DNA of 64,000 nucleotides from Halobacteriovoraceae bacterium (GTDB taxonomy: Bacteria; Bdellovibrionota; Bacteriovoracia; Bacteriovoracales; Bacteriovoracaceae), in assembly GCA_963719505.1 (NCBI GenBank), contig CAVRCF010000001.1, forward strand, positions 960,001-1,024,000. The letters are read 5' to 3'. The translations under genes were made by a program, and so were the position numbers. Of the stretch, positions 29,178 through 33,395 are shown in pieces. The stretch's first letter is position 1, and each line of letters starts with the position of its first letter. The notes below the pieces were generated by a model that worked only from the letters and a program-made list of their open reading frames with translations, was not told the origin of the DNA and ran no database searches.

Positions 29178-29939
29178 CTATAATTCATCTATAAGGTCGC
29201 CAATGATACTCCCTATGGCGTAGGGAACGGTGTAGGGCCTGTCTGAGTTATTGCCAGAAGTGTGTCCAAATCCAATTTTGTGGGTCCATTCATGAACCAC
29301 ATTACGAGCAACATCTGCGTAATCATAGTTTCTAAAAAATTTATTATTGACCCAAGTTCTAGTTGTATTTGGGTAAGTGTATCCCACAGTTGAATTATTC
29401 TTGTAGTACATTGTAACGTCGACATCGAGTTCATAATCTACTTCAGGAAGAAGGTCTTCTGCCCCTAACATGATTTTATTATATATTTCCTCATTTGTGA
29501 GACCTTCGTTCCAGTTGAACTGTCTCTCGCCCCTCCAAGTATGAGCTAGGACTCTGTCCTTGAATTCCATACTGTTGATAACAATTTTTATCCTCTCGAC
29601 AGCCTCAAGCATTTTCGCTTGCTGATCATCATCAAAGTTTGTCATCTTTATATTTACCGTTAGAGGGTTATCTTCTTGTCCTGGGTCGACTGTAAGAGCA
29701 TTACACTCTCTTGGTTGTTCCGTGGCTGGGTCAATTGATCCATCCGCAATTCCCTGATCGTACTCAAGCATGGCTTCTTCTATATTTAATACACAAGCGG
29801 TTTGATCACCTGTTCCAATTCCTATCGTTCCATCACCTGGTGCTTGTTCACAGGCCACTACTGCTACCAAACTTAATATCATCCCTAATCGTTTCATCCC
29901 GCTCTCCTTAGCTATTGAACTTTCAGTTTTGCATTGCAT
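29178..29939 (-). CDS. zinc metalloprotease lipoprotein (metzincin motif); start may be ATG 29897
   Basis: HEWTHKIGFGH = HExxHxxGxxH; lipobox VVAC; AGGAG before 29897. Confidence 0.78.
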   Translation of the reverse strand: MQCKTESSIAKESGMKRLGMILSLVAVVACEQAPGDGTIGIGTGDQTACVLNIEEAMLEYDQGIADGSIDPATEQPRECNALTVDPGQEDNPLTVNIKMTNFDDDQQAKMLEAVERIKIVINSMEFKDRVLAHTWRGERQFNWNEGLTNEEIYNKIMLGAEDLLPEVDYELDVDVTMYYKNNSTVGYTYPNTTRTWVNNKFFRNYDYADVARNVVHEWTHKIGFGHTSGNNSDRPYTVPYAIGSIIGDLIDEL

Positions 29940-29946
29940 AAACTCT

Positions 29947-29973
29947 ATATCGAAAAGTATAGTGGGATGTTTA
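29947..29973 (-). promoter_or_regulatory. putative sigma28-type promoter
   Basis: TAAA-N15-TTCGATAT on the minus strand. Confidence 0.45.
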
Positions 29974-30101
29974 GTGGTGCGTCATGGGACGGAAATATAT
30001 TCCTAAAAAAGAAATAATTTTGTGTTTTAATCTACACATGAGATAGGGGCAGTTCTACGTGACATAAAGCTGAATGATTTCAGTGCCTTGTAAAGACAGT
30101 G

Positions 30102-30211
30102 AGAGCTAGAAAAAGAAGAGAATTTAAAGAAGTGTAGTGTGAGGTTAAACTTATTCAAGTGTAACCGTAAGGTGGGGTAGTGGAAGAGAAAAGATCCTTT
30201 CTCTAGCTCTA
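30102..30211 (-). ncRNA. candidate structured small RNA or long leader
   Basis: 14-bp terminal helix 30197-30210/30102-30115, apical hairpin 30143-30166, begins at predicted sigma54 +1. Confidence 0.5.
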
Positions 30212-30221
30212 CCCTATATAA

Positions 30222-30238
30222 AGCAAGTGATATGCCAA
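30222..30238 (-). promoter_or_regulatory. sigma54 (-24/-12) promoter
   Basis: TTGGCATATCACTTGCT: TGGCA(T)-N5-TTGC with exact GG-N10-GC spacing. Confidence 0.7.
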
Positions 30239-30331
30239 TTTAAAAGTACCTAAAGCACTAATTTTATTAGAGTTGAAACCAGTCATTCTGAAACCAGGGC
30301 CGTCGGGGCACTGGAGTGGTCCTACAATGAT

Positions 30332-30634
30332 TTATTTTGCGTACTTTTTAATAATATCTACTTTTGATGAGATAAGCGTGGCTTTCTGCTCTGGGGTGAG
30401 GGTGATGGTTCCAAGTTTATTGCTTTGTTTTTCAATAAATGCAAGTTGTTGCTTGTAGTTAGTGCAGCACAAACATAAAAAAGTATGGAGCTTAATTTTA
30501 TACTTTAAAGAGCCAGTTAATTGGTTTTCGTTGGCAAGATAGAGGGCTGCCTGCTCACAATTGATCATTCTTTTAGACATAAAAGGAGGAATGAAGCTTG
30601 TGAGAAAATGGATTATTCTTCTTAATAAGTTCAT
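30332..30634 (-). CDS. zinc-binding (zf-HC2/ZAS) soluble anti-sigma factor
   Basis: CEQAALYL...HTFLCLCC (Hx3Cx2C); 4-nt overlap with ECF gene. Confidence 0.75.
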   Translation of the reverse strand: MNLLRRIIHFLTSFIPPFMSKRMINCEQAALYLANENQLTGSLKYKIKLHTFLCLCCTNYKQQLAFIEKQSNKLGTITLTPEQKATLISSKVDIIKKYAK

Positions 30635-31200
30635 CTTTCTAATTCATCCTTGAGGGCCAAGCGAAGATTATTTTTTGCTCTGTAAATGAGAACCCCTAAA
30701 TTAGTGCTTGTTATGTTCAATATCTTACATATATCTTCCGTCTTTTCACCTTCGATTTCTTTTAAAATAAAAGCCATTCTTTGGTTTTCTGGAAGTTTGT
30801 TAATCTCAATGGATAGAATCTCAGCAGTCTCTTTTGAGTCTAGCCAAGAGTGAGGACTAACTGGAACCTTGTAGTGCCCATCATCAGCAAATAAGTTACT
30901 TAGCTTAGATTCGTCATAATCAGCAGTGTATTTCTTATTCTCTCTGAAGGTTTCTTTGGCTTTATTATACATGATGCCAAAAAGGTATGTTCTTATATGA
31001 CTTCGACCTTCAAAATTTTCTATGCTTTCAAAAAAACTTCCCCAGGTATTTTGTACGACGACCTCGGCTTGATCCGCAGCCAATCCTTGTTTTATAGCCC
31101 CTCTAAAAAGAGCATCATGATACAAATTAACTAAATAGCTTACAGTCTCATGATCTCTATTCTTGAGAGATTTTAAAAATTGGGGTGAACTCAAATTCAT
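30631..31200 (-). CDS. ECF RNA polymerase sigma factor
   Basis: VVQNTW, FEGRSHIRTYLFGI, LPENQRMAFILKE, EDICKIL...LIYRAK. Confidence 0.92.
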   Translation of the reverse strand: MNLSSPQFLKSLKNRDHETVSYLVNLYHDALFRGAIKQGLAADQAEVVVQNTWGSFFESIENFEGRSHIRTYLFGIMYNKAKETFRENKKYTADYDESKLSNLFADDGHYKVPVSPHSWLDSKETAEILSIEINKLPENQRMAFILKEIEGEKTEDICKILNITSTNLGVLIYRAKNNLRLALKDELER

Positions 31201-31628: not shown

Positions 31629-32237
31629 TTAGTAAGCTCGGATTAAGCCGACTAAAACCCCTTTAATCTGAAAGTTCCCATCTTTGACAATTATTGGTTT
31701 CATAGAACTATTTGCAGGATGTAATTCTATTTGTTTTGTATGCTGATAAAATCTTTTTACTGTGGCTTCGTTATCGATAACTGCAACTACAGTATCTCCG
31801 TTTTTAGCCGTATTCTGCTCTTTGACGACGATTAAGTCTCCATCAAGAATTCCATCCTCGATCATAGATTCACCAGAGATCGTTAGAGCGTAATGATTTC
31901 CATATCCAATCATTGAGCTTGGTACACTTATAGTCTCAGTGCCCTCCATTGCTTCAATAGGGCTACCCGCTGCAACCTTTCCGTGGAGAGGGATGTCGAT
32001 AACATTCTCGCTAGAACCTAGAGCTTGTGGATTGATTGGCGTAAGACCTCTTACAGAATTTGAATCGGCCTCTAAGTAACCAGAGCTTTTTAAGTACTTA
32101 ATATAGTCTTGAACCGACCCAAGAGATTTAAAACCAAAGAACTCTTGTATTTCAACTTGTGTTGGAGAAACTGAATGCTCTTCAATGTACTCGACAATGT
32201 AGTCGTAAACCTGTTTTTGTTTTTTAGTTAAGCTCAT
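31629..32237 (-). CDS. lexA: SOS repressor LexA
   Basis: LTKKQ N-terminal wHTH, VAAG cleavage site, GESM (Ser), TVKR (Lys). Confidence 0.96.
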   Translation of the reverse strand: MSLTKKQKQVYDYIVEYIEEHSVSPTQVEIQEFFGFKSLGSVQDYIKYLKSSGYLEADSNSVRGLTPINPQALGSSENVIDIPLHGKVAAGSPIEAMEGTETISVPSSMIGYGNHYALTISGESMIEDGILDGDLIVVKEQNTAKNGDTVVAVIDNEATVKRFYQHTKQIELHPANSSMKPIIVKDGNFQIKGVLVGLIRAY

Positions 32238-32339: not shown

Positions 32340-33395
32340 ATGAAGATAAGAAAGATCATACATATCGACATGGACTATTTCTTTGCTCAAGTAGAGCTGT
32401 TAGATAAACCACATCTTAAAGACAAGCCTGTGGCCATTGGGGGGATAAGTTCTAAGGGCAGAGGTGTTTTGTCGACGTGTAACTATGTTGCACGAGAATT
32501 TGGTGTCCGTTCGGCCATGCCAAGCTTTATAGCTCTTCAAAAATGTCCTAACCTTATCTTTTTAAAGTCTAATTACAGTAAGTACTCACAGATTAGTTCT
32601 CAAATTTTTGAAATTTTTAAGCGCTATACAGATACCGTGCAAGTTGTCTCTGTTGACGAAGCTTATCTCGATGTTACAGATTCACCGTTGTTTTTTAATT
32701 CTGCGACCCTTATTGCGATAGATATTCGAAGAGCAATTTTTGAGGAAACGGGTCTTACTGCAAGCGCTGGAGTGTCATTTAATAAAATGCTCGCGAAAAT
32801 CAGCTCGGAGATAAATAAACCCGACGGCCTTTTTGTCATTGATCCCGCTAGTGCAGAATCTATTATCCCAAAGTTTGATGTCGCGCTCATCAATGGTGTT
32901 GGAAAGGTGACAAAGGCGAGATTAAATGACAGCGGAATCTTTACTTTTGCCGATTTAGAAAAGTATACCAAACTTGATTTAATAAACCTGATGGGATCTT
33001 ATGGTCCAACTCTTTATAATTTTTGTCGAGGTATCGATTCAAGAGAGGTGGTGACGAGTCGACAGAGAAAGTCATTAAGTGTAGAGAGGACATTCTTCGA
33101 GGATCTTTTAGACGAAAGTGAATTGAAGCATAAACTACAAATGTGTTTTGAAGAGATGATGGAAAGATTAAAAAAGCACACGGAAAGGGTAGTAAAAACT
33201 ATCTTTATAAAAATAAAATACTCGAACTTTGAACAAACGACTATTGAGCAGGGACTTGAGACACTCACGTTTGACTCTTTCTATTCTTTATTTGAACAGA
33301 GGTTTTCACAGTGTAAGCAGAAGGTTCGCTTGCTAGGTCTTGGTGTTAAGTTTCACAGTCTTGATCAAGAAGGACAATTAGCTTTTACTCTCTAG
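32340..33395 (+). CDS. dinB: DNA polymerase IV
   Basis: IIHIDMDYFFAQVE, NYVAREFGVRSAM, SVDEAYLD, KPDG, C-terminal QLAF clamp motif. Confidence 0.96.
   Translation: MKIRKIIHIDMDYFFAQVELLDKPHLKDKPVAIGGISSKGRGVLSTCNYVAREFGVRSAMPSFIALQKCPNLIFLKSNYSKYSQISSQIFEIFKRYTDTVQVVSVDEAYLDVTDSPLFFNSATLIAIDIRRAIFEETGLTASAGVSFNKMLAKISSEINKPDGLFVIDPASAESIIPKFDVALINGVGKVTKARLNDSGIFTFADLEKYTKLDLINLMGSYGPTLYNFCRGIDSREVVTSRQRKSLSVERTFFEDLLDESELKHKLQMCFEEMMERLKKHTERVVKTIFIKIKYSNFEQTTIEQGLETLTFDSFYSLFEQRFSQCKQKVRLLGLGVKFHSLDQEGQLAFTL

Follow-up and report, generated by a model that had tools for sequence, protein, structure and literature searches.

A probable family of sigma-54-promoted, rod-shaped RNAs in part of the Bacteriovoracaceae

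Introduction

A 64,000-nucleotide (nt) stretch from a Halobacteriovoraceae bacterium (assembly GCA_963719505.1, contig CAVRCF010000001.1; hereafter the window, whose own numbering is used for all positions) carries on its minus strand a sigma-54 promoter that points into an intergenic gap upstream of a gene for a metalloprotease lipoprotein. What would be transcribed from this promoter? The original prediction, made from the letters of the window, was an undescribed sigma-54-dependent small RNA (sRNA) with a symmetric, rod-like fold; it offered several roles, among them pairing through anti-Shine-Dalgarno-like segments, a 6S-like bubble and a switchable leader. The locus raises two questions, namely whether the element is a real RNA and whether it is a gene in its own right or the leader of its neighbor.

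Sigma-54-dependent sRNAs form, to our knowledge, a short list, with Qrr, CrcZ/Y, GlmY and Pxr among its members. The known ones act at key decision points, namely quorum sensing, carbon catabolite control, cell-wall precursor supply and development. The Bacteriovoracaceae are obligate predators of other bacteria. Among the papers searched, none was found on an sRNA in this family, and the sole co-mention was an unrelated phylogeny article. We report here that the element very probably represents a real and conserved family of sigma-54-promoted structured RNAs, found so far only in part of the Bacteriovoracaceae and apparently undescribed. We tentatively read it as an independent regulator that would act in trans by base pairing.

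A rod-like RNA fold behind a sigma-54 promoter

The element consists of the following parts:

30222..30238, minus strand: sigma-54 (-24/-12) promoter TTGGCATATCACTTGCT, TTGGCAT-N5-TTGCT, with a predicted +1 near 30211
30100..30213, minus strand: RNA core, matched end to end by a covariance model of 119 positions
30197..30210, minus strand: P1, 5' strand of the closing helix, AGAGCUAGAGAAAG (direct reading and RNAfold)
30167..30196, minus strand: J1, the 5' internal loop, C/U/A-rich and nearly G-free, with a GGAUCU turn and the motif ..CUACCCCACCUUAC
30143..30166, minus strand: P2, the central hairpin, with a GAAU loop (RNAfold; the consensus loop is also GAAU)
30116..30142, minus strand: J2, the 3' internal loop, C/U/A-rich and G-free, UCACACUAC...AAAUUCUCUU
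30102..30115, minus strand: P1, 3' strand of the closing helix, CUUUUUCUAGCUCU (direct reading, RNAfold and covariation in the family)

The promoter, with its GG and GC 12 nt apart, was read directly at 30238-30222. The two ends of the core pair over 14 bp including one G-U (30210-30197 with 30115-30102), and promoter, closing helix and central hairpin all lie where the original prediction had put them. RNAfold returned the same rod as both the minimum-free-energy and the centroid structure, at -31.3 kcal/mol (z = -3.87), and none of 200 dinucleotide shuffles folded as well; for the plus strand of the same region z was -1.32, with 23 of 200 shuffles equally good. The CACUAC sequence that had been pointed out is indeed present in both arms, but the repeat is peculiar to this copy, and the family consensus of the arms differs.

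Known RNA families do not account for the element. A scan with the 4227 models of Rfam 15 gave no match in positions 29500-30800 with E values up to 10 considered, the best overlap being FsrA at 15.1 bits against a gathering score of 80, and it gave no match at E <= 0.1 in 20 further loci that carry the element. Nor does a conserved protein account for it. The region had been described as free of open reading frames (ORFs), which needs correction: a 43-codon ORF with a TTG start and no Shine-Dalgarno sequence (30027-30158, minus strand) overlaps the 3' half of the RNA. This ORF is not conserved, as 12 of the 30 copies described below lack any ORF of at least 20 codons starting inside the RNA and the others differ in start position.

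A family of homologous copies

A DNA search with the 401-nt intergenic gap against 60 relatives yielded short partial matches, the longest of 42 nt, several of which were the promoter alone (for example in genome G002, downstream of groEL); in the own genome, this intergenic sequence was found once. Homologues surfaced through the synteny of the protease gene and then through covariance models. In four other genera, a sigma-54 promoter and the same architecture stand ahead of a homologue of the protease, with a different sequence and compensating helices (GAGCUGGAC/GUCCAGCUU, GAGUCGGUU/AACCGACUC and AGCUAACG/CGUUAGCU). From a MAFFT alignment of five sequences, RNAalifold derived 27 pairs, and in 18 of these both partners change.

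A covariance model of these five, here termed R1, gave 27 full-length matches in 18 of 151 family genomes and 8 of 69 genera, with E values from 7e-25 to 2.5e-7; the family-wide model searches used Infernal's stricter filters and at most 151 genomes each. The window copy scores 88.8 bits (E 5.9e-17, model positions 1-119), a match that holds by construction because this copy is one of the five seeds, so that the independent evidence lies in the 22 non-seed matches. Family membership is defined by a full-length match comprising P1 (16 bp) and P2 (10 bp, with a loop of the GAAU type) and, between them, the G-poor J1 and J2, and the window copy matches over this full length. A second model, R2, which gives the window copy 75 bits, was used on the other families of the phylum and had no matches in 127 genomes from 24 of them under the same stricter filters.

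Fetching loci through homologues of the metalloprotease gave 80 loci, assigned to Bacteriovoracaceae, to 'Halobacteriovoraceae' or to higher ranks, with one from another family, and all but one from metagenome-assembled genomes. Thirteen of these 80 loci carry the RNA, all of them titled as metagenome-assembled genomes. After identical rows had been dropped, 30 distinct copies were left in total. Seven genomes hold two or three copies each, and the own genome, which is 83.5% complete, holds three, namely the window copy and those at G000:C4:143869-143985 and 148135-148252.

The latter two copies lie 4.2 kb apart (G000:C4:143869-148252), with an IS481-type transposase gene, two small ORFs and a LysR gene between them. 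In a congener (locus L043), homologues of the outer neighbors of this pair enclose a single copy, an arrangement that suggests a duplication or insertion in the own genome.

Covariation and loop composition

The alignment of the 30 rows was fitted to the model, which favors the modeled structure. Standard pairs make up 94.4% of 786 cells; sliding the 3' partners by 1-3 columns lowers this to 34-49%. In 26 of the 27 pairs (208 cells) both sides change, and none of 500 column shuffles reached the observed value on any of five measures. Both helices contribute: P1 comprises 16 pairs, with 96.5% of cells paired and 15 of 16 pairs changed on both sides, and P2 comprises 10 pairs, with 92.9% of cells paired and all 10 changed on both sides. 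The slid controls, together with the initial MAFFT/RNAalifold result, argue that the signal is real despite the fitting of the alignment. The helices contain 70 G-U cells and 14 A-C cells, an excess which indicates that the constraint acts on this strand as RNA.

The two internal loops have a composition of their own. Across the 30 copies they consist of 33% C, 32% U, 32% A and 2.4% G, with the consensus CC-UACCU.AA...CC.ACC for J1 and UC.CAA...CUAAA..AUUCUU for J2, and their motifs include CACCU(C/U), UACCU and UC(C)CA(A). A conserved GGnAUCU turn tops P1, and the hairpin loop is GAAU.

The mutually exclusive local hairpin that had been proposed for the 5' part of the RNA (AGAGAAAG/UUUUCUCU) can form in the window but is weakly conserved. 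In a fixed-register test 61.9% of its cells are paired; it reaches -5 kcal/mol or lower in 13 of the 30 copies, with a mean z of -0.78 and z < -2 in 5 of 30. It competes with the inner part of P1, where covariation is good. Additional tertiary or pseudoknot pairs, including the loop GAAU with an AUUC of J2, were sought by an all-against-all column screen and rejected: effects of purine/pyrimidine composition dominated the screen, and no extra pair was convincing.

The promoter and its upstream region

In all 29 copies with upstream sequence, TGGC[AG]-N6-NTGC stands at a fixed distance from P1; the thirtieth copy is cut by a contig end. This fixed distance places the predicted start 1-4 nt before P1, so that the RNA would begin with its own clamp. 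The own genome encodes rpoN and has about ten strong matches to Sigma54_activat, the domain of bacterial enhancer-binding proteins (bEBPs). It also contains 36 strict matches to TGGCA[CT]-N5-TTGC[AT], where a first-order Markov model leads one to expect about 4-11, and 32 of the 36 lie outside crude ORF calls that cover about 87% of the genome. The 30 covarying copies, the promoter in 29 of 29, the presence of rpoN and bEBPs and the silence of Rfam together bear out the idea of an undescribed sigma-54-dependent sRNA. Among the sigma-54 sites of the genome, the window promoter is unusual solely in having no start codon after it.

Most of the 36 sites have in common a longer consensus that runs downstream from -12, TTGCTyyATATAGGGTAGAGAGA, and in many of them an ATG comes within the next 20-40 nt. 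With this spacing, the GGAGAG-like start of the transcript may at the same time serve very short leaders as their Shine-Dalgarno sequence.

Upstream of the promoter, the following features were noted in the window:

30297..30312, minus strand: best local match to the family's upstream motif, a candidate bEBP site
30274..30297, minus strand: direct repeat of CTGGTTTCA (30297-30289 and 30282-30274), between the upstream motif and the promoter

The motif was derived by Gibbs sampling from the 165 nt upstream of the promoter in 29 copies. It spans 16 nt, AGtGcCAataTGatCc, and reached 12.9-13.4 bits, whereas eight shuffled sets gave 8.7-9.3 bits. Many of its instances are palindromic (GGGGCAAAATGCCCC-like), and the distance to the -24 element downstream of it ranges from 40 to 153 nt. 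To judge from sequence, this shared motif looks like a bEBP site. The site in the window is weak, at 13.9 bits with the 99th percentile of random windows at 11.9, and its score is circular because the locus belongs to the training set. The reverse complement of CTGGTTTCA resembles the TGAACCAG half-sites upstream of other copies. The best score for the motif in the own genome falls on a protein-coding sigma-54 promoter at G000:C2:151760; this site was considered as a fourth copy of the RNA and rejected, being the sigma-54 promoter of a gene for a secreted protein.

An A/T-rich block, A.TT.AG..A.TTA (e.g. ..ACTTAG..), occurs about -15 to -45 upstream of the -24 element in most copies and at 30243-30268 in the window. 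It lies between the candidate enhancer site and the promoter, the expected place for a bending site of the integration host factor type. No bEBP was found among the flanking ORFs scanned; at locus L042, a hybrid kinase/receiver protein is encoded upstream.

Genomic neighborhood: an RNA gene or a leader

The genes and smaller features around the element in the window are these:

31200-30631, minus strand: extracytoplasmic function (ECF) sigma factor, upstream operon
30634-30332, minus strand: 100-aa anti-sigma-like protein with HxxxCxxC, upstream operon (NF052368 at 30.1 bits, below its cut-off of 50)
30070..30098, minus strand: two small hairpins 3' of the rod (RNAfold)
29948..29974, minus strand: sigma-28 (FliA)-type promoter of the downstream gene, CTAAAC-N15-TCGATA
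29178..29897, minus strand: downstream lipoprotein of 239 aa with an invariant HEWTHKxGxxH zinc-metalloprotease (metzincin-type) motif; likely start ATG 29897 behind AAGGAG, alternative ATG 29939 (253 codons)

Across the family, what follows the element varies:

15 of 30 copies: a member of the metalloprotease lipoprotein family, same strand
6 of 30 copies: another exported protein, same strand (trypsin-like, redoxin, metallophosphoesterase, beta-propeller lipoprotein and two unknown)
8 of 30 copies: a convergent gene with a Pfam domain, at 0, 1, 9, 18, 23, 36, 140 and 439 nt
1 of 30 copies: the end of the contig

The eight copies that face a convergent gene indicate that the element is an RNA gene in its own right and not merely a leader. 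Both other copies in the own genome are of this type, one meeting the stop codon of a gene with a TGase_elicitor domain and the other facing a LysR gene. A switchable leader, as had been envisaged, cannot for this reason, and given the weak conservation of the alternative 5' hairpin, be the general role. At the 21 co-oriented loci, read-through and an effect in cis are possible.

The sequences 3' of P1 could not be aligned across the copies, and no conserved sequence was found there. An intrinsic terminator lies 26-79 nt downstream in 4 of 30 copies according to a script, and one more was recognized by eye. The two small hairpins that had been predicted behind the rod are present in the window but are not kept in the family, and no convincing terminator or terminator-like site was found at 30070-30098. 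P1 itself was considered as an intrinsic terminator and rejected: T reaches 50-70% at about +4 to +9 after P1, yet a run of four or more T occurs in 9 of 30 copies against a background of 20%.

The gene that follows has a promoter of its own, [CT]T[AT][AT]A[GC]-N15-[CT]CGATA, at 8 of the 30 loci including the window. Since this pattern precedes both flagellin genes of the own genome, we took it as the local sigma-28 type, and the sigma-28-like promoter ascribed to the protease in the window (29974-29948) agrees with it. The local form appears to be [CT]TAAAG-N15-[GT][CT]CGATA, judging from sites at G000:C1:449377 and 547850 and from 29948-29974 in the window. A flagellin-type promoter on the metalloprotease lipoprotein suggests that the protease belongs to a flagellar or 'attack-phase' late class.

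The metalloprotease lipoprotein itself has no match in Pfam or NCBIfam. The family has three conserved Cys residues and four paralogues in the own genome (up to six in relatives), and homologues were found in 13 of 80 other family genomes. The RNA is found upstream only in the closest orthologue group of the protease (13 of the 80 loci). Upstream of the RNA, the pair of ECF sigma and anti-sigma-like genes is syntenic in 7 loci. In 6 loci lexA lies further upstream; in the window it occupies 31629-32237 (minus strand), divergent from a dinB-type polymerase gene (32340-33395, plus strand).

Between the RNA and the sigma-28 promoter, the protease-linked loci, unlike the other copies, contain a block rich in C (UUCUUCCCCCC-like). 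It was seen in L034, L036, L051, L057, L035, L095, L072, L078 and L041, and in the window at about 30040-30055 (GCCCCUAUC). This block could extend the sRNA at its 3' end, load Rho, or be bound as DNA by a protein that regulates the sigma-28 promoter.

RNA-binding proteins and 6S RNA

Hfq (PF17209) had no match in 41 family genomes, 40 of which are at least 95% complete. In the own genome, at its 83.5% completeness, ProQ was not found and Ro/TROVE (PF05731) had no matches, which stops short of proving their absence. CsrA is encoded in the own genome, and the RNA contains one conserved GGA, at the top of P1. A separate, full-length candidate for 6S RNA lies at G000:C1:551486-551671 (minus strand), with 45.5 bits just under the gathering score of 46.4.

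Discussion

The results indicate that the sigma-54 promoter of the window precedes a conserved RNA gene, and the question that follows is how this RNA might act. A chaperone-independent platform that pairs with purine-rich sequences is the simplest reading of the clamped rod, which holds open two long loops rich in C, U and A and free of G. According to this proposal, each copy would be transcribed from its own sigma-54 (-24/-12) promoter with the help of an enhancer-binding protein, and the RNA, predicted to be about 115 nt long, would start nearly at the first base of the 16-bp helix. That helix would clamp the 5' end to the 3' part and hold open two internal loops of about 30 nt around the hairpin with the GAAU loop. 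The exposed pyrimidine-rich loops could then pair in trans with purine-rich, Shine-Dalgarno-like mRNA sequences, without Hfq. A set of targets would thereby be placed under the signal that activates the cognate bEBP, and this set may include the secreted hydrolases that often adjoin the RNA. Among the roles first suggested, anti-Shine-Dalgarno-like seeds fit best, given loops with 2.4% G and CACCU, UACCU and UCCC motifs.

Several results weigh against such a regulator. A same-strand gene begins 16-318 nt downstream in 21 of the 30 copies, and most copies are without a recognizable terminator, a run of four or more T within 25 nt after P1 being found in 9 of 30 against the 20% background. The loop motifs are moderately conserved, and the position of UCCCAA reads UCACAA or UCACAC in the three copies of the own genome. 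Duplexes between the loops and the starts of the cognate proteases were no better in energy than non-cognate ones (p = 0.84 and 0.79), a comparison of little power in which both partners are conserved and in which the start at the window locus was set at the upstream ATG 29939 rather than at 29897. A scan of 3,647 crude start regions in the own genome returned generic G-rich Shine-Dalgarno sites and no coherent set. The conserved GGGUAGAG leaders of other sigma-54 transcripts were likewise considered as targets of the loops and rejected, with p = 0.0096 in one of six tests and 0.11-0.47 in the rest. As no target was identified, we hold an independent, trans-acting regulator that pairs through its C/U-rich loops without a chaperone at a probability of about 0.45-0.5.

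The same architecture could instead serve to bind a protein. An independent sigma-54-dependent RNA might act as a sponge, decoy or scaffold, with the helix, the hairpin and the pyrimidine/A-rich loops as its recognition surface; a rod clamped at both ends with large conserved loops, the several copies per genome and the lack of a specific mRNA target in the duplex and start-region scans would all suit such a role. CsrA is encoded in the genome and one GGA is conserved atop P1, which would suit this role too, but the 2.4% G of the loops and the single GGA mean that the multi-GGA design of Csr/Rsm sponges is absent. Ro and ProQ were not found in the own genome, nor was Hfq in the 41 genomes searched, and the loops contain no promoter-like sequence. 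This last point, together with the separate 6S candidate, also makes the 6S-like bubble of the original prediction unlikely. No candidate protein partner emerged, and we regard protein binding as an unlikely explanation of the family. A role mainly in cis is another possibility. As a structured 5' leader or promoter-proximal module, the element would then govern how much sigma-54 transcription enters a downstream gene for a secreted hydrolase. It could do so by termination or by loading Rho on its C-rich, G-poor loops, by occluding the sigma-28 promoter, by sequestering the Shine-Dalgarno sequence in read-through transcripts, or as a switch driven by a ligand or protein. The 21 co-oriented copies speak for it, as all of the downstream genes that were read begin with a signal peptide or lipobox and 15 of them form one metalloprotease family, with a trypsin-like protein, a redoxin and a phosphoesterase among the others. 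The attenuator-like terminators directly after the element in 4-5 loci, the 5' hairpin of -5 kcal/mol or lower that is possible in 13 of 30 copies, and the C-rich block (UUCUUCCCCC..) between RNA and sigma-28 promoter in at least 8 protease loci point the same way. A riboswitch or cis leader should, on the other hand, always be co-oriented with its gene and carry an expression platform, and here 8 of 30 copies, including two of the three in the own genome, run into a convergent gene, and nothing is conserved after P1. The downstream genes outside the protease group are mutually unrelated, the downstream gene has its own sigma-28-type promoter in 8 loci, and the alternative hairpin is paired in 61.9% of cells with a mean z of -0.78 (z < -2 in 5 of 30). 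A predominant role in cis seems improbable to us.

An explanation at the level of DNA, in which a miniature inverted-repeat mobile element or a palindromic protein-binding site mimics an RNA helix, is largely refuted, and we give it very little credence. Its attractions are the inverted repeat of 14-16 bp flanking about 85 nt, the presence of several copies per genome and the IS481-type transposase gene that adjoins one copy on another contig. Copies in the same genome are, however, diverged rather than near-identical, the arms covary and have no fixed terminal sequence, and the 70 G-U against 14 A-C cells are a strand-specific signature of RNA. Moreover, in every copy with upstream sequence the spacing from the sigma-54 promoter is constant, and the DNA search found this intergenic sequence once in the genome.

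To return to the trans-acting, base-pairing regulator, its most far-reaching version would be a Qrr-like switch of predators. Redundant sRNAs gated by sigma-54 and bEBPs, with G-free anti-Shine-Dalgarno loops on a clamped rod, would in Hfq-less cells globally reprogram the translation of a sigma-28 'attack-phase' secretome, which comprises metalloproteases, trypsin-like proteases and further exported hydrolases. The cue, whether prey, nutrients or cell density, would be received by one dedicated bEBP. This is a speculation, and we think it quite unlikely to hold in all its parts. In a more general sense, a conserved, multi-copy, enhancer-dependent RNA that often stands beside secreted proteases with flagellin-type promoters offers a handle on the regulation of the predator life cycle. 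With 30 sequences and strong covariation, the family is also fit for RNA family databases and would improve the annotation of mostly uncultured genomes.

Comparison with known systems

Among known sRNAs, Qrr1-5 of Vibrio (sigma-54 and LuxO) come close in their organization: they too are small RNAs with a bEBP-dependent -24/-12 promoter and upstream sites, present in several diverged and mostly stand-alone copies. The element of the window shares the sigma-54 promoter and the multiple copies (three in this genome). It differs in showing no match to the Qrr model of Rfam in the window or in the 20 other loci, in an upstream motif (AGtGcCAataTGatCc) unlike the LuxO site, and in its fold, a rod clamped at both ends where Qrr is a series of stem-loops ending in a terminator. 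Qrr moreover needs Hfq, which was found in none of the 41 genomes of Bacteriovoracaceae. CrcZ/CrcY of Pseudomonas (sigma-54 and CbrB; sponges for Hfq/Crc) and GlmY of enterobacteria (sigma-54 and GlrR; a decoy for RapZ) are also sigma-54-dependent and trans-acting, and they provide a precedent for a protein-titrating mechanism. Neither is homologous to the family according to Rfam; CrcZ has repeated A-rich Hfq motifs and requires Hfq, and GlmY mimics GlmZ. Pxr of Myxococcus resembles the family in being a lineage-restricted sRNA of about 100 nt with a predicted sigma-54 promoter in a predatory former 'deltaproteobacterium', but it has three stem-loops, occurs as a single copy and has another taxonomic range, and the element matches no Rfam family.

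The loops have their nearest counterpart outside the sigma-54 systems. RsaE/RoxS and the 'UCCC' motif RNAs of Staphylococcus (Firmicutes) use unpaired, C-rich, G-free seeds that are independent of Hfq, and the UCCCA and CACCU of the family loops are of the same type. These C-rich-seed sRNAs of Firmicutes differ in having sigma-A-type promoters and seeds in hairpin loops, whereas the seeds of the family would lie in the internal loops of a clamped rod; here again there is no Rfam match. 6S RNA (RF00013) shares the rod shape and a large internal loop, but the element has no match to RF00013, measures about 115 nt against about 185 nt, and has G-free loops that are not promoter-like. Sponges of the Csr/Rsm type are marked by many GGA in their loops, where the family has 2.4% G and a single conserved GGA, and Y RNAs depend on Ro, for which PF05731 gave no match in the own genome at 83.5% completeness.

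The sigma-28 promoter next to the RNA invites a further comparison. In Campylobacter jejuni, an RpoN-dependent and a FliA-dependent sRNA are reported to form a pair in the flagellar hierarchy (PMC11187230). The parallel with the window locus lies in an RpoN-dependent RNA in a cell that uses sigma-28 for late genes, the RNA here standing directly upstream of a sigma-28-type promoter. The family RNA has a promoter of its own, whereas the Campylobacter RNA is processed from a flagellar mRNA; for homology, the comparison was limited to Rfam. In kind, then, the element is a sigma-54/bEBP-controlled small RNA like Qrr, CrcZ/Y, GlmY and Pxr; its clamped rod with G-free internal loops sets it apart from the folds of all of these, and it is a member of none of these families.

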